49,912 bases of DNA, taken from the sequence record OZ335956.1. The stretch is one strand, 5' to 3'. This DNA comes from a phage. Below are positions 6,087-49,315 of this stretch, in pieces (the stretch's first letter is position 1; every line of letters begins with the position of its first letter). The notes below the pieces were generated by a model. The model saw only the letters and a program-made list of their open reading frames with translations, did no database searches and was not told the origin of the DNA. Position numbers and translations under genes: made by a program.

Positions 6087-6107
6087 CACAAAAATGCTTT
6101 GACGCTT

Positions 6108-13830: not shown

Positions 13831-13852
13831 CCCGCCTTGCGCGGGTTTTTTT
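13831..13852 (+). terminator. rho-independent terminator, followed by TGTAGAATGG -10-like element
   Basis: CCCGCCTTGCGCGGG hairpin followed by T7; same hairpin recurs at 16010. Confidence 0.6.
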
Positions 13853-13893
13853 GTGGCTGTAGAATGGTATCAACTAAACGAGAGGAAAAAGCA

Positions 13894-16009: not shown

Positions 16010-16032
16010 CCCGCCTTGCGCGGGTTTTTTTT
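16010..16032 (+). terminator. rho-independent terminator, followed by TGTATAATGG -10-like element
   Basis: CCCGCCTTGCGCGGG hairpin followed by T8. Confidence 0.6.
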
Positions 16033-16080
16033 CGCCTGTATAATGGGTTCACCGATAAATAGCACAAAAAGGTAAACATC

Positions 16081-19536: not shown

Positions 19537-19559
19537 GGGGCCGATTGGCCCCTTTTTTT
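19537..19559. terminator. bidirectional terminator
   Basis: GGGGCCGATTGGCCCC flanked by A-run upstream and T7 downstream; lies between convergent genes. Confidence 0.6.
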
Positions 19560-20591
19560 AATACATGTTTGGAGTGAAAGGAATTGGCATTGAAATGTTT
19601 ATGTTGAATGGGAATTGAGCGCCGCTCTGAGTAGAATAGTTACCTACCATCGTTCCTGGTGCGCTTCTAACGTTACCTCCGCTCATGCACACGCCCTTGT
19701 ATCGGATGTTATTATATCCACCTGTAACCCTGCATATTGTGCCAGTTCTCAGTATTGGGAAAAATCCACCGCACCACTGCCAGCCGTCATTTATCGCCAT
19801 AGTCCCGCCGAGAACGAAGGGGCGTCTAACGCTTGAGAAAACGATCTGACCAGCGGGATTGCTCATAGTAATTCCCGGTCCTGGAGGTGGTGGAGTGTTA
19901 TTAAATATTACGAGTTGCACGTATACGCTCGCGCCAACGTCATCAATCCCGTTATAGTTTGCATCCCTACACCATATAGTATTTCCGTCAGATTCAAGTG
20001 TTACGTTTGGGTTATCCCACATACCGAAAGGAACGCCCTGGACTGGCAATTGAGCCTGACCGTTAACCTGGATGCCTCCAACAAATGCGGCACTCATCAA
20101 CCTTGCGTTATTCGGTATCGCTGCGAAGTTGGTTGAATCGTTGACAAGTATCCCCTGATTTCCTGCCTGAGCGGGGAGAATTTCGTAACAGTTGCCATAA
20201 AATCTCATCCTTCTTCCACCGTGACCGTTAAAATTCCCTACCGTTATTCGCCCGGTTGAATCATTAACCTTCTGAAAGCTGGTTAAATAATACACCTCAG
20301 GAATATAATATTCCCTACCGTTATTCGCCCGGTTGAATCATTAACCTTCTGAAAGCTGGTTAAATAATACACCTCAGGAATATAATTCATGTCGTCTATG
20401 TAGATGGACTGAGATGGAAGGCAAAAAGCAGTAGATCCAGGACTCATTTGCAGACCAAAATCAAAAACCGATCCCGATGAGTCAACGCCGTCCGCTTGTA
20501 TTGGTCCGCACCATGACGGTGCGCGAAGCCCCGAGGTTATCTCCATTGCCGGACGACCGTCATTTAAGTTTATGTATATTCCTTGTCCCAT
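19558..20591 (-). pseudogene. putative receptor-binding protein gene, frameshifted by a 77-bp tandem duplication
   Basis: two - strand ORFs (20283..20600 and 19558..20295) both contain YYLTSFQKVNDSTGRITVGN; removing one 77-bp copy restores a single 966-nt (321-aa) Gly/Asn-rich ORF. Confidence 0.55.
20233..20386. repeat. perfect tandem duplication, 2 x 77 bp
   Basis: 20233-20309 and 20310-20386 are identical on direct comparison; 77 is not a multiple of 3. Confidence 0.9.
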
Positions 20592-20593
20592 AA

Positions 20594-20824
20594 TTACCAC
20601 TCTTTAGTTTTGATTGACACCTTGCCGCTAAAGTTTCCCTGGTCGTCGTCTGATGACAGACCTTTGAATCGCATGTCGATTTCTCCAGCGGGAACATTCT
20701 GCCCGTCAACGAATCGCATCATGCAAGAACCGTACGCGTAAGTAACACAGTCGCCATTTTTAAGATTCTGAGCGCAACCAGTCAGGATGAATGCAGAAGC
20801 GATAATGGTGATTAATTTTTTCAT
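20594..20824 (-). CDS. small lipoprotein, superinfection-exclusion-like (Llp/Cor-type candidate)
   Basis: 76 aa; signal peptide with lipobox ILTGC; sits directly upstream of the putative receptor-binding protein gene on the same strand. Confidence 0.55.
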   Translation of the reverse strand: MKKLITIIASAFILTGCAQNLKNGDCVTYAYGSCMMRFVDGQNVPAGEIDMRFKGLSSDDDQGNFSGKVSIKTKEW

Positions 20825-20879
20825 TTGTATGTCCTCGTCGTTAGTGTGATTGCATTGTATGTCGCATTTACTTTTATTG

Positions 20880-21290
20880 CAATAGCTCGATTACAATTTT
20901 TTCGTGTAACAGGTGTCTATTTTTGTAACCGGAATAGGTGTTACAAAATCGACCCCATCCGACCGCAGGGAGATATGATAAAAACTCTATATAATATATA
21001 TAGATAGATAATATTTAATTTTAGCTTTATATATATAATTATTGTTGTGTAACAGTTGTCTATCGTGTAACAGGTGATTTGATTGATTCGTCAAATTTCT
21101 ATCATATATGTTCAAAATTTAATCAATAGGGATTCCATTTATGGATATCTATGTATTTCTAAGAAAAAGCGGTTACAAGTGTTACGCAATAGACAGCACA
21201 CAAAAACTGACTCAAGTTATTGATTCAGTTGATGCTGGTTGTAACTTGAGCAATATAGACACGCAATTACACACCAATTACATGTATTCG
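20880..21290. promoter_or_regulatory. AT-rich divergent control region with repeated words
   Basis: non-coding; GTGTAACAG(G/T)TGTCTAT at 20904 and 21048, inverted copy near 21169-21195, AT-rich tract 20980-21050. Confidence 0.45.
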
Positions 21291-21291
21291 A

Positions 21292-21319
21292 TTGACTAAA
21301 TGCTGTTAATGGCTATAAT
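21292..21319 (+). promoter_or_regulatory. sigma70-like promoter for recombination operon
   Basis: TTGACT, 16-nt spacer, TATAAT, about 30 nt upstream of ATG 21351. Confidence 0.55.
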
Positions 21320-21350
21320 GGATTCATCGTAAACGAAGGAGATAAACGCA

Positions 21351-22415
21351 ATGTTTAAAGTATTCACATCAAGCCAGCTTTCTAATGACGAGTATCATAG
21401 CAATGAAGGTTGGGCGGCAGAGTATGTAAGCGGATCTAGCCTTGCTGAAATCTATCAGACTTGTCCGGCTAACTGGAGATTCAAGAAGAACGAAACGACT
21501 AAAGCGCTGGAGTTCGGTACTCAGTCGCATACAAACTTTGAGAGTAGCGATCTGTTTACTGCAACGTATGCGCGTTGTCCGTCTCCGGCAGAGTTCAAAG
21601 ATCTGATTACGTCACAAGCCGCGCTGGCTGCAAAATTAAAATCTTTCGGCCTGAAAGGTACATCCGGTAAGCAGTACCCGGACCTCATCAAAATGATGGT
21701 TGATTGCGGTGAAGATCTCAATGTTCAATATCTGATTGAACTGATTGCTGAAGCTGAGGCGCGTGCTGAAGGAAAGCAACTGGTTGACGCTGATAAATAT
21801 GATGCCTGTATGAAGATGAGAGCCATCCTTGAGCAAAATCCCGATCATGAAGCGTGCATCAATAGCGAGACGGCCCAGCGTGAGATCTCAATCTTCGGTG
21901 AGATATCCGGCGTAAAGGTTAAAGTTCGACTTGACCATTTGGACTATAAAGAGAATGTTCCAGGTCGTGTGCTGACTGGTTACGATGAGAATGGCGATCC
22001 GGTATTCGAAGACGTGATTTTTCCTGAAGCACTGATTATCACCGACTTCAAAACAACTATGAGCGCTAACCCGTTAGAGTTCCCGAGACTGGCATACAAT
22101 CACGGCTATTACCTGAAAATGGCATTGCAGCACGACCTGCTGCGACGTGCAATCCAGGCTGGCGCTTTTGAGGGTAACTTCCCGGAAGATATCCCGATCG
22201 TAGTTCGATTACTGGCGCAGGAGAAAAAAGAGCCTTACATCGCCCTTGCTTACCGCATGACTATGGAGCAAATCAGGATCGGGCGTAGTCAGTATGTTAG
22301 CGTTGTCCACACCTACAAGGCTTGTTCTGAGATGGACGTTTGGCCCGGATACGCTGGCGACGCAAGCGAGATCGAACTTGAAACGCCGTCATGGGTACGC
22401 TATCAAAACAAGTAA
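21351..22415 (+). CDS. PD-(D/E)XK-type recombination exonuclease (putative)
   Basis: 354 aa; motifs VRLDHLD ... ITDFKT ... YYLKMALQ consistent with a D/ExK nuclease core; followed by annealing protein and SSB. Confidence 0.55.
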   Translation: MFKVFTSSQLSNDEYHSNEGWAAEYVSGSSLAEIYQTCPANWRFKKNETTKALEFGTQSHTNFESSDLFTATYARCPSPAEFKDLITSQAALAAKLKSFGLKGTSGKQYPDLIKMMVDCGEDLNVQYLIELIAEAEARAEGKQLVDADKYDACMKMRAILEQNPDHEACINSETAQREISIFGEISGVKVKVRLDHLDYKENVPGRVLTGYDENGDPVFEDVIFPEALIITDFKTTMSANPLEFPRLAYNHGYYLKMALQHDLLRRAIQAGAFEGNFPEDIPIVVRLLAQEKKEPYIALAYRMTMEQIRIGRSQYVSVVHTYKACSEMDVWPGYAGDASEIELETPSWVRYQNK

Positions 22416-22489
22416 ACGGCACAAATAGCTAAACAAGTAATTAATGAGGTGTTATAATGCACCTCGTACACCAATCAGGAGAAGTTAAG

Positions 22490-23137
22490 ATGCAATTATC
22501 ACCAGAAACCAACGAAATCCTTCCTGCACTGTTTAACGCTCGCAACAAATTCGCTAAAGCAAAGAAGGATGCTAAAAACAATCACCTGAAAAATTCATAC
22601 GCAACGCTTGATGCAATGATGGCGGCAGTAAGTCCTGCGTTAACCGACAACGATATCATGATTCTGCAATCAATGCTGGACACCAGTACAGAAACGACAT
22701 TCCATCTTGAGACTATGCTGATTCACAAATCAGGGCAGTGGGCCAAATTCTTCATGATGATGCCGATTGCAAAACGAGATCCGCAAGGCGTAGGTTCTGC
22801 AATGACGTATGCGCGACGTTACTCTCTCGCGGCGGCGCTTGGAATTAGCCAGAGTGATGACGACGCGCAGCTTGCGGTGAAATCTGTCAAGGATTGGAAA
22901 AAAGAACTTGATTCGTGTGAAGATATCGAATCACTGAAAGAGGTATGGGCTAACGCTTACCGCCAGACGGACACGGCAAGCAAGTCAATCATTCAGGATC
23001 ACTACAACGCACTGAAGGCTAAGTTTGAGATCGGAAAGGCTCGCGGCATTCGCCCGGCGCAACCGGAACAGAAAAAACAGGTTGAAGCAACAAGCGCGAA
23101 ACCTGTACAATCTCAATCAATCACCAATTTCGAATAA
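22490..23137 (+). CDS. single-strand annealing protein, ERF family (putative)
   Basis: ATG 22490 with RBS CAGGAG; segment TYARRYSLAAALGISQSDDDA resembles the conserved ERF core. Confidence 0.65.
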   Translation: MQLSPETNEILPALFNARNKFAKAKKDAKNNHLKNSYATLDAMMAAVSPALTDNDIMILQSMLDTSTETTFHLETMLIHKSGQWAKFFMMMPIAKRDPQGVGSAMTYARRYSLAAALGISQSDDDAQLAVKSVKDWKKELDSCEDIESLKEVWANAYRQTDTASKSIIQDHYNALKAKFEIGKARGIRPAQPEQKKQVEATSAKPVQSQSITNFE

Positions 23138-23184
23138 TCATTCCGGGCGGCTTCGGTCGCCCATAAATTTTAGGAGAGAAAATC

Positions 23185-23598
23185 ATGCATATTATCACTG
23201 GCGAGATCCGAAAAGAACCTAAGATTCTTGAACGTAACGGAGGCAATACTTATATTATTGAACTGGCAGAGAGTTACAAGCCGCGTGATGGCGATCGAGA
23301 ATACACCAACTATACATTCTTTTTCAGCGATGGTGGGAAGCCCGGACTTGCTGATTGGTATCGTGAAGCGTTCCAGGTTGGTCGCGTCGTATCAGTATCG
23401 TGCGAGACGTTGAAGATCTCATCCCGCGAGCACAACGGAACGGTTTACAATTCATTGCAGGCGGCTGATTTTCCTAAGTTGATATTCAGCCAACGAGGAC
23501 AAAGCAACCAACAACGAGCGCCACAGCAACAACAGCGAACGCAATCACATCAACAGCCAAATCCTCAATCAACTTTCGACGATGATATCCCGTTCTAA
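23185..23598 (+). CDS. ssb: single-stranded DNA-binding protein
   Basis: 137 aa; Q/P-rich linker and C-terminal DDDIPF, the hallmark acidic SSB tail. Confidence 0.8.
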   Translation: MHIITGEIRKEPKILERNGGNTYIIELAESYKPRDGDREYTNYTFFFSDGGKPGLADWYREAFQVGRVVSVSCETLKISSREHNGTVYNSLQAADFPKLIFSQRGQSNQQRAPQQQQRTQSHQQPNPQSTFDDDIPF

Positions 23599-25411: not shown

Positions 25412-25432
25412 AGTATAAACTCCTTAAGTAAA

Positions 25433-25511: not shown

Positions 25512-26447
25512 TTAGAGTAGGTCACTTGCTGAGAATAATTTGGCTTGCATTCCTGAACGGTATCCTCCAGGGTTAGGGATGATTATTTTTAACTGCCTGT
25601 CGTCTGCCATATACAAAGTTTCTTTGTCAGATGGTTCGCACGCCACCCTTACCTCCCGATCCCCTTTGTATCTGTACGCAACCATTTCTAGGTTTTCAGG
25701 AGTAAAGCAGGCCCATACCTCTTGCTTTGTATGAAATGCAATATGTTGAGCATCAATCCAGTTTAGACACAAGTAGATCGCCTTCTCAGTTTTACCAGTC
25801 ACGGCAACCGAGCAACTTGTGTATTTCTTCGCGTAAAATGATTCCCTTCCCTCTTCATCAATAATCAAAATATTGCAAAACTCGTCATCAAGCCCATCGT
25901 CATGCACAAGTTGACACGGGATAGTGTGAAATACTGACTCACCGCCATCCTCGCGACGTTTTACGCCTACGTCGAATGATTCAGTGGGTAGTGACTCAAA
26001 CATACTTAGAGGCGTGTTTACGCGCTTCTCTGTGCGCTCCATAACTTTCATCACTGCATCATGGTCTGCCATCATAACATTTACGCCAGCTACCGGAGTG
26101 CGGCGTGCTTTTTTGTTTGCCTTGACAATGTACTCCTGCGGAACCTTACCGAGAAATCTCCCCAGGATGTTTATGCATTCACTGTACGGCATACCAGTTA
26201 ATTTCATCAACCAGCCGATCCCGGAGTCGTTGCCGCATGAGTTGCAGATCGCGCCGCCGTCGCCCGGAGTATTCAAGTTATCAGTCCAACGAAAACGGTC
26301 CTTGCCGCCGCAGTTAGGGCAAGGTTGGTGCTTCTTGTTGAAAACCTCGTTAGGCAATCCGCAAACAGACTGGAATGCATCACGCCATAACCCCTTCATA
26401 TACGGCAATACGTCCTCTTTCTGAAACATCATAAATTCTTCGTTCAC
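25512..26447 (-). CDS. DNA primase (zinc-ribbon type, putative)
   Basis: CPNCGG...CNSCG zinc-binding motif near the N-terminus; adjacent to helicase. Confidence 0.55.
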   Translation of the reverse strand: MNEEFMMFQKEDVLPYMKGLWRDAFQSVCGLPNEVFNKKHQPCPNCGGKDRFRWTDNLNTPGDGGAICNSCGNDSGIGWLMKLTGMPYSECINILGRFLGKVPQEYIVKANKKARRTPVAGVNVMMADHDAVMKVMERTEKRVNTPLSMFESLPTESFDVGVKRREDGGESVFHTIPCQLVHDDGLDDEFCNILIIDEEGRESFYAKKYTSCSVAVTGKTEKAIYLCLNWIDAQHIAFHTKQEVWACFTPENLEMVAYRYKGDREVRVACEPSDKETLYMADDRQLKIIIPNPGGYRSGMQAKLFSASDLL

Positions 26448-26506: not shown

Positions 26507-26959
26507 TTAACTAAAAATGCTATTGGTCGTTCCGATATCTTCCTTCTTCACCACTCGCATAAACTTCTTGTTCTTGCATCGCTTCTCAAGGCACTTGCCG
26601 TTACCGTCAAACTTGAGGTCGAATCGCAACCATGCCGCGCGGTATCCTTTACACCCCTGGCGACGGTAAGCGCGATGTGCAGCTTCAGCACCTTGCCACG
26701 AAATCATATTGCGCTCTTTCCAGCCTTGCACGGTCTGATTACTAACTTTCAGAGCCTTTGCGCAGGCCGCCGGGCCACCATAATATTCGATAAGAGCATC
26801 AAGTCGCGCTCGCAGTCCGGCGCGTGTTTCTTCTTTATGGATATAGAATCCGCAGCGTTGGCGAGGCTTTTTATCTTTACCGCGTCGGGTTCCATTGTTA
26901 CCATTGATGTGACGTTTATCGATTTCACCAGTTGACTCGGCAATTCGTTGCATATTCAT
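26507..26959 (-). CDS. HTH-containing DNA-binding protein (putative)
   Basis: 150 aa; segment GGPAACAKALKVSNQTVQGWK resembles a Cro/YdaS-type helix-turn-helix; basic, Cys-containing flanks. Confidence 0.45.
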   Translation of the reverse strand: MNMQRIAESTGEIDKRHINGNNGTRRGKDKKPRQRCGFYIHKEETRAGLRARLDALIEYYGGPAACAKALKVSNQTVQGWKERNMISWQGAEAAHRAYRRQGCKGYRAAWLRFDLKFDGNGKCLEKRCKNKKFMRVVKKEDIGTTNSIFS

Positions 26960-34085: not shown

Positions 34086-34493
34086 TCAAATTCTTCTTTC
34101 GTAAGCTGGAGCCTTGCGCACAATTCGACGTTCCGATCTATCAACGTTTCTACGTTCGCTAAACAAGTCTTCATCACTCATTTCTCCAATGTGCATCATT
34201 TCCCATGTATATCGATTGTTGTAGCCATCAATACACATCAGCTTCATCATTACCGGGCGCTTAATCTTTCCCTTGCACCAGTAAAATCCATCTTTGCAAT
34301 CAAGATAACCCTCAGTTACACAGCGTGAGCAAAACTCCTTAGATAGCGCGCTTGTAAATTCACGGCGAGTCATCCCGGCGGCCTTAGCGAATCGCTCACT
34401 TTCCTTGTGGGCGTATATAAATTTCGCTATGTGCTGTCGGGTGTATTTGTCGTATCCTTCGCAGAACCGGAACAGATCTAAAAGAAGAAGCAT
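34086..34493 (-). CDS. hypothetical Cys-rich protein
   Basis: 135-aa ORF translationally coupled to upstream gene. Confidence 0.5.
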   Translation of the reverse strand: MLLLLDLFRFCEGYDKYTRQHIAKFIYAHKESERFAKAAGMTRREFTSALSKEFCSRCVTEGYLDCKDGFYWCKGKIKRPVMMKLMCIDGYNNRYTWEMMHIGEMSDEDLFSERRNVDRSERRIVRKAPAYERRI

Positions 34494-34497
34494 ATAA

Positions 34498-36066
34498 TTA
34501 ACCCATCAGTCGAGGATTGATGAAAACAATATCATCAATGCGGCAAGTGTAGTTCATCTCTTCGAGCGTGATCAGCAGACTGTCGATTCGCTCAGCTACC
34601 TTCTGCTGACCGTTGAACGGAGTAACGTTCCGACACTTCGCTACAATGCTATGAATCGGTGCGCGGCCTTTGTTCTTCTTCGCGATCTCAGTGATAACAT
34701 CAATCAGTTTACGGGATTCAGCCTCATCACCAGCATATCCGGCAGCACTGGCAGAAGAAAGATAAGTCCTGGAAAGCTCATTGAAAATCATAATCGCTTC
34801 CTGCATTGTTTCGAGATCAATCTCACGATTAGCTCGGTTCGGTGATTCACCCTCCCAATTCTTGATCGTGTGAAGAACTGAGGCGATACGCAGAGCGTGC
34901 TTATCGAACTTTCCGAGATGACCGCGCAGCATTGAGTGAGAGTATTTCCCCCCGGCGGCGAAATCCGGTTCCATAGCCTGACGCGCCAGGTTTAATTCAC
35001 GCATAGCATTACGGCTTACAGAGAGAACAACGTTTTCCTCCTTCATGATGTTATGCACGAGTCGATAATATTTGCTAACCAGTCCGCGATCGACTTCCTT
35101 ATACAGTGCATCACCATTTTCATCGCACAGAATACGAGTACCTAAAAGCGGTTCCTCACGAACTAACAAGAAGCGCTCAGATACACCGATACCTCGTTGG
35201 CCTGCGTCCATGATACCCTTGATTGTTTCATCCTGAGCAATTACGCAGATCGAACCTACCGGGCACAGGGACAAGTTATTGTCCTGGTTGGATCGAGCGA
35301 CCTCCATGTGGTTTTTATCCCACGCCTTAAGGATAAGTTCACTGTTGGATTTCTTATCTGAACCTCCATACGTCAGTCCAAGCAATGTATTGATTGCCGT
35401 TGCTTCATCAGAGATTACGGAGAAGTGACCTTGAACAGCCGCCACTTTCGCCAGACCTTCGGGTGTAGGATCTGATACCGCGAAAACAATATCAGCCATC
35501 TTCTTGATCTTCTCTTCCAGTTTCTCTTTGTCTTCGTACAGAGCCGCAGTCGTGTTACCCTTCTGGTCGTTCTTGATTTCCTTCTCAACCTGACGTAGCT
35601 GACTGGTTAAACGGATACGCTCCTTTTTGCGTTCTTCATTCAGTCGCTGAATCTCCGCGCGCATAGGAGTAATTGCCGCTGAGTTAATCGCTGATTTACC
35701 CGTTGACGGCGGCTGACTGATTACCATATAAAGCGCGGTCGGTTGTTCTTCGCCGTGATATTGCACCCAAAACTTCCCGAGCATCGCGGCTGAGATGCAA
35801 CCGATGAAATGAGCGTACGCAGACGAAACCGGGAACTGAACTGACTCAGCCTTCGCCTTTGCATATTCGAATACCAGGTTATCGCCACCTAACGAAATCA
35901 GCGGGAACTTATCGTTGCCGCTATTGATATCGATCGGGTCTTGCCAAAACGAAACTGAATCCCCATAACTGTTTTCACGAATTGCGATCGCCACCGGATT
36001 AACTCCAGTGCTATTGGCGATCTCAATAATCTGTTGGTAATTAAGTTTTGGCTTAATATTAAACAT
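34498..36066 (-). CDS. P-loop NTPase-like protein (putative replication or recombination ATPase)
   Basis: start MFNIKPK with RBS AAGGAG; Walker-A-like QPPSTGKSA; ~522 aa. Confidence 0.5.
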   Translation of the reverse strand: MFNIKPKLNYQQIIEIANSTGVNPVAIAIRENSYGDSVSFWQDPIDINSGNDKFPLISLGGDNLVFEYAKAKAESVQFPVSSAYAHFIGCISAAMLGKFWVQYHGEEQPTALYMVISQPPSTGKSAINSAAITPMRAEIQRLNEERKKERIRLTSQLRQVEKEIKNDQKGNTTAALYEDKEKLEEKIKKMADIVFAVSDPTPEGLAKVAAVQGHFSVISDEATAINTLLGLTYGGSDKKSNSELILKAWDKNHMEVARSNQDNNLSLCPVGSICVIAQDETIKGIMDAGQRGIGVSERFLLVREEPLLGTRILCDENGDALYKEVDRGLVSKYYRLVHNIMKEENVVLSVSRNAMRELNLARQAMEPDFAAGGKYSHSMLRGHLGKFDKHALRIASVLHTIKNWEGESPNRANREIDLETMQEAIMIFNELSRTYLSSASAAGYAGDEAESRKLIDVITEIAKKNKGRAPIHSIVAKCRNVTPFNGQQKVAERIDSLLITLEEMNYTCRIDDIVFINPRLMG

Positions 36067-39602: not shown

Positions 39603-39617
39603 TAGCAAAAAATGCTA
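39603..39617. promoter_or_regulatory. palindromic motif site, perfect TAGCA-N5-TGCTA
   Basis: tagcaaaaaatgcta. Confidence 0.55.
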
Positions 39618-40226
39618 TTCCAATAATTGCTTATTATTCCATCAATGCTGGAATAGGTGGAATAATTTTGATTCCGATTGATTGCAAATGATGAAACATG
39701 ATTATTGCATGGTGTGCAACAGTTGGTTGATTTATTGCTGAGATTACAATGATTGTGAGAGGGAGGATCTAGTGTTACCCGGTTCGCCTGGTAGTCATCT
39801 CCATTTTTAGCAAAAAGTGCTACCGATTACACTTTAACTTGTCACTGCTGTAATATTTGTCTAGAATCACACTTGTGACAAAATTACGCACTGTGACACC
39901 TCACAATATACATATAGATATATGTATCTATATAATATATATAGTATTTTTTTTATTTATATATATAGATAATTATATTGTAATAATTGTGTATAGTTGT
40001 CTTACATTGTCTAGCGTACTGTTGGCATATTTCTATCTGCATGTTTATATATACAGTACTTTTTTGAGAGCTATATATTTCTATATGGACTCTAGACAGC
40101 TAGACAAATGTTACACGGCTTAAAATCGGCTTGCAGGCATTGACAACTCTACGTCGCGCTGTCACAATGGCAATTGTTGACACGTTATGACGCCATTTAC
40201 ACGCAAATAGACAAAGAGGATATATT
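39618..40226. promoter_or_regulatory. AT-rich divergent control region (candidate origin or early promoter cluster)
   Basis: non-coding; five GGAAT/ATTCC repeats at 39617-39675; sigma70-like TTGTCA-17-TAGAAT at 39839-39867; palindrome ATAGATA-tatg-TATCTAT; imperfect palindrome TGTCACAAT..ATTGTTGACA near 40160-40185. Confidence 0.5.
39808..39822. promoter_or_regulatory. palindromic motif site, perfect TAGCA-N5-TGCTA
   Basis: tagcaaaaagtgcta. Confidence 0.55.
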
Positions 40227-49271: not shown

Positions 49272-49297
49272 TAACCCGCTTCGGCGGGTTTTTTTAT
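49272..49297 (+). terminator. rho-independent terminator
   Basis: CCCGCTTCGGCGGG hairpin followed by T8. Confidence 0.65.
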
Positions 49298-49315
49298 GCC
49301 TGCAATATGGTAAAA

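Follow-up and report, generated by a model that had tools for sequence, protein, structure and literature searches.

Two paralogous, strongly constrained non-coding modules of T1-like phages as possible origins of replication

Sequence comparison identifies the gap between cor and recE of a T1-like phage (sequence record OZ335956.1; the whole stretch of 49,912 nucleotides that was analysed is called the window below) as a cis-acting module under strong constraint that has a paralogue elsewhere in the genome, the two being present in every Drexlerviridae genome examined. We refer to this gap as R1 and to the second module, at window positions 39800-40226, as R2. The core of R1 may be an origin-type unwinding and protein-binding module placed between sigma-70 promoters, a tentative reading to which we give somewhat less than an even chance. 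The window is a Tunavirus and, apart from a few differences given below, corresponds to Escherichia phage UP30 (OX638287) rotated so that it starts at the ATG of the terminase large subunit. UP30 matches at 100% over the 526 bases 20825-21350 and phage T1 at 94%, and the gap sequence finds 68 matching phage records, all of them T1-like. An earlier note, made from the letters of the window, had described a non-coding gap of ~470 bp here; the gap is real and non-coding, but it measures 526 bp (20825-21350, with the recE ATG at 21351).

Paralogy, anatomy and constraint of the modules

The earlier note had drawn attention to a 17-mer, GTGTAACAG(G/T)TGTCTAT, reported twice in direct orientation and once inverted. 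Both direct copies are exact: copy 1 (GTGTAACAGGTGTCTAT) lies at 20904-20920 on the + strand, with the words TGTAAC and TGTCTA 9 nt apart, and copy 2 (GTGTAACAGTTGTCTAT) at 21047-21063 on the + strand, one base from the start of 21048 that had been given for it. The inverted copy proposed for 21169-21195 is absent at up to three mismatches; what lies there is merely a cluster of inverted component words (21170-21201). Over the whole window the 17-mer with up to three mismatches has three matches against 0.15 expected, a count that none of 100 shuffles reached, and the third of these, at 40100-40116, led us to R2.

R2 (39800-40226, + strand) lies 19 kb from R1, in a 620-bp divergent gap (39609-40226) of the same layout, and runs into the early genes. 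It begins on the left with a leftward promoter of the 21-nt type described below, followed by TGT words and an AT tract; after the tract come a tandem array of TGT words, TAGACA words in inverted orientation and, finally, a rightward promoter with TTGACA. Its AT tract (39905-39985) is the least stable DNA in the genome and has TCTATATAATATATATAG in common with the AT tract of R1. No other part of the genome matches R1 as well as R2 does (local score 59, compared to 24 ± 3 in shuffles; z 11). R1 and R2 are mutual best matches in each of the four whole genomes that we compared, with z values of 11 in the window, 17 in TLS (Tempevirinae), 31 in SRT8 (Sertoctavirus) and 17 in IME347 (Badaguanvirus). 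A profile hidden Markov model (HMM) built from non-Tunavirus cores only has exactly two significant sites in the window, at 20903-21076 (E 3.8e-8) and 39837-40033 (E 2.4e-5). Between them, R1 and R2 account for 2.3% of the genome, yet hold nine of its 14 TGTCTA words, all five TGTAACA words and all seven occurrences of TATATATA, an enrichment that far exceeds chance. When the R2 core was searched against the phage collection, DNA-level matches were confined to Tunavirus; the Klebsiella-phage matches obtained with a wider query did not recur with the core, and presumably fall in the flanks of that query.

Conservation of the layout extends well beyond Tunavirus. We collected 46 loci with RecE relatives (42-98% identity) from viral contigs, and in all 46 recE is preceded by the least stable 60-nt stretch, at a distance of 328-387 nt in 45 and of 162 nt in one (L050). 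The 90 nt after this stretch carry 3-17 TGT versus 0-2 ACA on the top strand, again in 46 of 46. The words themselves vary by lineage, with TGTAAC/TGTCTA in Tunavirus, TGTAAT in SRT8, TGTAAC plus ATATACGC in ESCO41, and TGTTCC/TGTTCAC, in inverted orientation across the AT tract, in TLS-like phages; such change is what would be expected for the binding sites of a phage-encoded protein. TLS has a complete module, left arm included, although it has no leftward gene or promoter there, so the left arm is not simply a promoter accessory. The earlier note had tied its proposal to conservation of the repeats in related phages: the 17-mers, the AT tract and the promoter are near-invariant in 15 distinct Tunavirus sequences, and across the Drexlerviridae the layout is preserved, whereas the words are not; the proposal is thus not refuted on this count.

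Within R1, copy 1 of the 17-mer is centred ~65 nt upstream of the predicted cor transcription start and is followed by a perfect inverted repeat, TTTTGTAAC-N10-GTTACAAAA (20921-20948), with invariant arms and a variable spacer in the 15 Tunavirus; its ACAAAAT block is preserved in both R1 and R2 of the window, IME347 and T1. A GC-richer, variable spacer (20949-20974) then leads into the AT-rich tract that the earlier note had also seen and that is indeed present at ~20975-21040. This tract is bipartite (CTATATAATATATATAG ... TTTATATATATAAT), near-invariant and of low duplex stability, and is a candidate DNA-unwinding element. To its right come copy 2 and a third, truncated copy (GTGTAACAGGTGA, then TGATTTGATTGATT; 21065-21092, + strand), which ends a top-strand array of TGT/TGA words with ~9-nt spacing. 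The right arm consists of two groups. In the first (21170-21201, - strand) the inverted words GTTACA, GTTACG and TAGACA are spaced by 9 nt, and 21180-21195 is 88% complementary to the junction 21057-21072. The second (21238-21275) has TGTAAC on the + strand and then inverted words (ATAGACACGCAATTACAC), these forming the arm's second inverted-word group at 21255-21272, and is centred ~63 nt upstream of the predicted recE transcription start. In T1 (L001, 3056-3527), a region otherwise ~94-95% identical, both 17-mers share a C-to-A change (TGTCTAT to TGTATAT), which suggests a concerted change or gene conversion between the copies.

Duplex stability was computed from nearest-neighbour energies. 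The R1 AT tract is the second least stable window of the genome at both 40 and 80 nt (z 4.8 to 5.6), and holds the same rank in TLS, SRT8 and IME347; in all four genomes the R1 and R2 tracts are the two least stable duplex windows (z 4.4-6.5, with the next site at 3.9 or less). The AT tract also opens the most constrained part of the gap, a 150-bp core (20976-21125) that lies inside or beside the profile-HMM match 20903-21076 and has 13 variable sites out of 150. Among the 15 Tunavirus sequences, mean divergence is 0.012 in this core and 0.066 in R1 as a whole, with 0.029 for copy 1 and 0.004 for copy 2 of the 17-mer. It reaches 0.146 in the spacer (20949-20975), 0.149 in the middle stretch 21126-21169 and 0.119 in the right arm (21170-21291). 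The corresponding values for recE are 0.029 at first and 0.257 at third codon positions. Judged by these substitution patterns, the core is under purifying selection and evolves ~20 times slower than recE third codon positions, a degree of constraint far above what AT-richness alone needs.

Promoters and the 21-nt repeats

The near-consensus promoter that the earlier note had placed at 21292-21319, TTGACT-16-TATAAT on the + strand, holds up: it matches the sigma-70 consensus at 11 of 12 positions, and its hexamers are invariant in Tunavirus. This promoter, P_recE, is already annotated as such in T1 and SA32RD, and the same arrangement (TTGACTAAATG...TATAAT) is found in SRT8, IME347, ESCO41, TLS and a further locus, L020. 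Its spacing, its place before a gene and its conservation in relatives are those of a predicted sigma-70 promoter. On the opposite side, a leftward sigma-70-like promoter of cor (P_cor, TTGCAA-17-TACAAT; 20854-20882, - strand) has a 9/12 match, and both hexamers are invariant in the 15 Tunavirus; SA32RD has a promoter annotated at this position. P_cor is a degenerate copy of a 21-nt ATAGCACnnnTTGnTAAAA element and aligns with the intact 21-nt element of R2. A further TATAAT block in R1, with a second AT block ~30 nt later, was considered as a promoter and rejected, there being no usable -35 or extended -10.

Intergenic repeats of 21 nt (aaATAGCACnnnTTGnTAAAA) have been published for TLS and T1 in a paper that leaves their function open (PMC11447400), and the leftward promoters of both modules are members or descendants of this family. 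The repeats are nevertheless a different thing from the modules: they are single promoter-associated elements before many genes, whereas the R1/R2 module is ~450 bp long and occurs exactly twice per genome. In the window, a repeat family ATAGCACnnnTTG(C/T)TAAAA has more than 20 sites, always oriented with the downstream gene and followed ~20 nt later by TATAGT-like hexamers; it matches the published TLS/T1 repeats (PMC11447400). Examples on the + strand are at 25432, 26973, 29482, 30504, 32492, 41013, 41751, 42806, 44092, 45666, 46186 and 47481, and further sites (coordinates read on the + strand) at 6106, 9873, 36122, 38255, 38672, 39601 and 39806.

A possible origin of replication and competing readings

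If the core of R1 is an origin-type module, the duplex would open at the bipartite AT tract (20975-21040), and the phased TGT-type words to the left (20904-20948), to the right (21047-21092) and, inverted, further to the right (21170-21275) would be landing sites of a phage-encoded DNA-binding or replication protein. Opening and protein assembly would then lead to initiation of replication. Candidates for the landing protein are the Zn-ribbon primase (25512-26447), the Cro-like helix-turn-helix (HTH) protein encoded next to it (26507-26959) and the DUF3987 helicase (34498-36066) together with its 135-amino-acid partner (34086-34493), all on the - strand. P_cor and P_recE, pointing outward, would bound the module and may serve early expression of cor and recE-erf-ssb; their transcription may add negative supercoiling behind the polymerases and so help opening. 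We favour this reading because the extreme melting is conserved, because phased, lineage-specific words stand on both sides and in both orientations, and because the constraint is centred 200-300 bp from either promoter, with a full module in TLS despite the missing leftward gene. It is also favoured because the phage brings its own primase (Zn_Ribbon_Prim) and DUF3987 helicase, and no origin is known: a re-annotation in 2024 found neither an origin nor iterons in TLS or T1-like phages (PMC11447400). The pairing of R1 with R2, the shared C-to-A change of both 17-mers in T1 and the lack of a coding or RNA signal count for it as well. A more specific version, which we regard as doubtful, is that R1 and R2 are T1-type replication origins whose one-strand TGT array is read by the phage primase/helicase system and not by a classical iteron-binding initiator; the array, adjacent to the AT tract where the duplex would open, would be read as single-stranded or phased double-stranded DNA.

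The candidate binding proteins were searched with Pfam, PHROG and NCBIfam, which recognised a Cro-like HTH in a 150-amino-acid protein and, for the helicase and the primase, DUF3987 and a Zn ribbon, respectively, with nothing further. Single-sequence AlphaFold models of the candidates had a pLDDT (predicted local distance difference test) of ~41, were unusable and were kept out of fold searches. The DUF3987 helicase (522 amino acids) is encoded at 34086-36066 on the - strand together with, 4 nt later, a conserved 135-amino-acid protein (phrog_2794) that is annotated as HTH in TLS and for which a low-confidence model suggests a helix-helix-helix-hairpin order. Residues 438-521 of the helicase, at its C-terminus, fall into a PHROG family of their own. 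We consider the 135-amino-acid protein and the helicase C-terminus as candidate DNA-binding specificity modules.

R2 itself occurs in Tunavirus as two alleles (window 39830-40226) that are ~78% identical and differ mostly in their word arrays. The window type carries TAGACA words in its right arm; the T1 type, found in T1, ADB-2, ISF002 and Lg3 (L070, L072, L073 and L074), has three tandem GATTAACAC. These alleles are linked to alleles of the first early gene, whose window product (171 amino acids) is 52% identical to the 191-amino-acid protein of T1. Between T1 and the window, the primase, both helicases, the Cro-like protein and the 135-amino-acid protein are 96-99% identical, and none of the candidate proteins changes along with the R2 arm alleles. 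The first early gene does change with them, and carries no DNA-binding signature. A separate box in R2, CATGTTTATATATACAGTA at 40039-40058, is kept in R2 of T1, ADB-2, ISF002 and Lg3 and largely in IME347, and has no counterpart in R1; its equivalent in SRT8, CTGTGTATATATACAG, is a perfect CTGT-N8-ACAG LexA-box pattern, and the window copy has one mismatch in CTGT.

Several of our findings weigh against an origin. There are just two full 17-mers, 143 nt apart, whereas textbook iteron origins have more, and a set of at least four full iterons was not found. The short words differ between R1 and R2 within one genome, and a covariation of TGTCTA and TGTATA between R1 and R2, suggested by T1, is contradicted by Lg3, which has TGTATA in R2 and TGTCTA in R1, so that it is not general. 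The R2 arm alleles travel with the adjacent first early gene while the replication proteins stay 96-99% identical, and a swap of arms with unchanged replication proteins is awkward for a single sequence-specific initiator that reads the arms. The search for a binder failed, PDB sequence searches being empty, and an initiator gene adjoining R1 was not found. Finally, GC skew follows transcription only, both GC and AT skew mirroring the direction of transcription. DnaA boxes (TTATNCACA with at most one mismatch) number none in R1, one in R2 and 40 in the genome, which is not the box cluster of a DnaA-dependent, oriC-type origin. Avoidance of GATC was considered and rejected, the 963-nt GATC-free gap over R1 being just the third largest in the genome.

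The second reading, which we consider possible though not probable, makes R1 a transcription-control region, in which the word arrays would be bound by a phage regulator, such as the Cro-like HTH protein or an early product, that activates or shuts off the two outward early promoters; the AT tract would couple these as a spacer sensitive to supercoiling, or act as DNA that is bendable or curved. The module does lie between divergent promoters in Tunavirinae, and its outermost sites are centred at ~-65 for P_cor, ~-63 for P_recE and ~-67 for the rightward promoter of R2, typical positions of upstream activators. That the R2 arm alleles segregate with the neighbouring early gene cassette and not with the genes for replication fits a regulator too, and the invariant arms and variable spacer of TTTTGTAAC-N10-GTTACAAAA resemble the site of a dimeric protein. 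Against this, the strongest constraint falls in the central 150 bp, 200-300 bp from either promoter, and TLS keeps the left arm and core where it has no leftward promoter. Nor would an operator region be required to include the genome's least stable DNA, as is seen in four lineages. A switch of the lambda OR type does not fit: none of the sites covers a promoter hexamer (-35 or -10), and R1 is bordered by cor and recE, with no adjacent repressor or other regulator gene. Origin and control functions could also coexist. The earlier note had offered operator or iteron sites, and hence a switch or an origin; to view R1 as a functional cis element within this frame is fair, and the data do not settle which of these it is.

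That R1 is instead a structural site for host nucleoid proteins (IHF, Fis, H-NS, HU), as an insulator or topological barrier between transcription units, seems improbable to us. AT-richness and the ~9-10-nt phasing of the TGT words are in line with such a site, and there is one exact IHF consensus match (WATCAANNNNTTR; 21213-21225, - strand), the sole one in R1 among five in the genome. However, words bound by host proteins should be constant across coliphage lineages, whereas these change, and near-invariance over 150 bp exceeds what degenerate sites need; the lack of DnaA boxes in R1 also speaks against host proteins. Consensus scans for LexA and CRP found no sites in R1, and BLAST found no match to R1 in plasmids or in 5,426 E. 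coli genomes.

Still less probable is a role in packaging, with the shared module as the small-terminase recognition site and R1 as a secondary or vestigial pac. In the pac sites of P1 and SPP1, repeated words do surround a central site. The annotated 2.8-kb terminal repeat of T1 starts at position 1 of the T1 record, which aligns to ~39705, ~100 nt left of R2, and several other Tunavirus records begin within 39690-39792; the TLS pac site has been mapped to the equivalent place (PMC11447400). The T1 chromosome end thus falls beside R2 and not beside R1. Moreover, the pac-proximal stretch 39609-39800 has words of its own, TTATTCC / GGAATAA in inverted orientation and several TGATT / GATTG, which are also present in SRT8 and IME347 and have no counterpart in R1, so that the shared R1/R2 module is not the pac site itself. 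Since this stretch contains ~39705, the equivalent of T1 base 1, it is itself likely the pac or small-terminase recognition region, judging by its position and words. T1 and TLS have one submolar pac fragment (PMC11447400), and a second active pac at R1 would yield a second series.

It is very improbable that R1 encodes a small protein or RNA: although two small open reading frames (ORFs) in the gap are annotated in public records (T1 CPTT1_049, 46 amino acids, ORF46; UP30 PFGHJN_00048, 52 amino acids, ORF52), ORF52 has stop codons in the other 14 Tunavirus sequences and no Pfam match, ORF46, open in all 15, has 8, 15 and 13 variable sites at codon positions 1, 2 and 3, hence no third-position excess, with many radical changes, Rfam gave no match at E up to 1 under permissive thresholds, and the core folds no better than shuffles on either strand (z -0.05 to 0.57). 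The small ORFs, at 21083-21223 and 21141-21299, are not coding.

Comparison with known systems, flanking genes and significance

An origin at R1 would have precedents in several systems, to which we compare it by analogy. The Bacillus phage SPP1 has two separated origin-type sites, oriL and oriR, bound by the origin-binding protein G38P. As here, the genome is that of a virulent siphovirus, and two distant, related sites, non-coding or partly coding, would place short repeated boxes beside an AT-rich region; unlike here, SPP1 repeats the same boxes at its two sites and has a known binder, whereas the words of R1 and R2 differ and neither copy lies inside a replication gene. The satellite phage P4 also uses two sites, ori and crr, with type I iterons of the alpha protein in direct and inverted orientation. 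Shared features would be the use of two sites, short words that occur in either orientation and a Zn-ribbon primase in the phage, and the TGTTCAC words of the TLS-like phages may resemble the P4 octamer. P4 alpha, however, is a single primase-helicase-DNA-binding protein, whereas primase and DUF3987 helicase are separate genes here.

In the origins of Staphylococcus aureus pathogenicity islands (SaPI) and phage-inducible chromosomal islands (PICI), and in lambda ori, iterons lie beside or flank an AT-rich tract, and lambda needs transcriptional activation. R1 may be likened to these in its repeats on both sides of an easily melted AT-rich tract and its nearby outward promoters. Those origins, however, are located within the initiator gene or immediately downstream of it, with at least four near-identical iterons, whereas R1 has two to three long repeats plus many 6-nt words and adjoins recombination genes. 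At T4 oriF and oriG and the T7 primary origin, a promoter is followed by an AT-rich unwinding element, with R-loop priming. The perfectly conserved TATAAT block of R1, with a second AT block ~30 nt later, in a virulent phage with its own primase and helicase, would be comparable, except that no acceptable -35 or extended -10 precedes the block and no transcript is known.

R1 is flanked on the left by a cor-like superinfection-exclusion lipoprotein gene (20594-20824, - strand; Pfam PF24052 Phage_lipoprotein, E 1e-23), recognised as an ORF and with a T1 orthologue annotated as Cor. On the right, P_recE drives the recE (exonuclease VIII)-erf-ssb operon (21351-23598, + strand; ORFs and public annotation), preceded by a recE ribosome-binding site, AAGGAG (21336-21341, + strand), that was read from the sequence and is annotated in T1. 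Beyond cor to the left lies the receptor-binding locus, downstream of the J-like tail protein. The earlier note was right to call this a leftward receptor-binding locus, as it fits the BASEL account of receptor-binding protein plus cor loci downstream of gpJ (PMC8594841). A 318-amino-acid gene between the J-like tail protein and cor is a bona fide receptor-binding locus that is broken in the window by a 77-nt tandem duplication (20229-20382; copies 99% identical), missing from UP30, into the ORFs 19558-20295 and 20283-20600, both of which carry YYLTSFQKVNDSTGRITVGN. The window differs from UP30 by this duplication with two nearby substitutions, by a substitution at 19649 and by an extra base at the UP30 record junction. 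Elsewhere in the window, a terminator-like hairpin, CCCGCCTTGCGCGGGTTTTTTT, occurs three times (13831-13872, 16010-16051 and 49274-49315), each time followed directly by a -10-like element (TGTAGAAT / TGTATAAT); by their sequence, these look like terminator-promoter junctions between late transcription modules.

What appears to be new here is the pairing of R1 and R2 and its conservation throughout the family; the annotation of P_recE and the 21-nt repeats were known already. We found no description of paired R1/R2 modules in the searchable literature, which does not include the original T1 genome paper (PubMed 14972552). Two publicly annotated small ORFs in the gap turn out not to be genes. 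T1 belongs to the classical set of seven T phages; its Drexlerviridae relatives are abundant in phage collections and among therapy candidates. If the modules are regulatory instead of origins, they would still define the control regions of the family's two canonical sigma-70 early promoters. If R1 and R2 are a pair of origins, R2 would lie in the terminal redundancy by pac and R1 before the recombination operon, which would link initiation of replication to packaging and to recombination-dependent concatemer formation. In either case, two delimited, family-wide candidate sites of ~150-450 bp make the question of the T1 origin directly testable.

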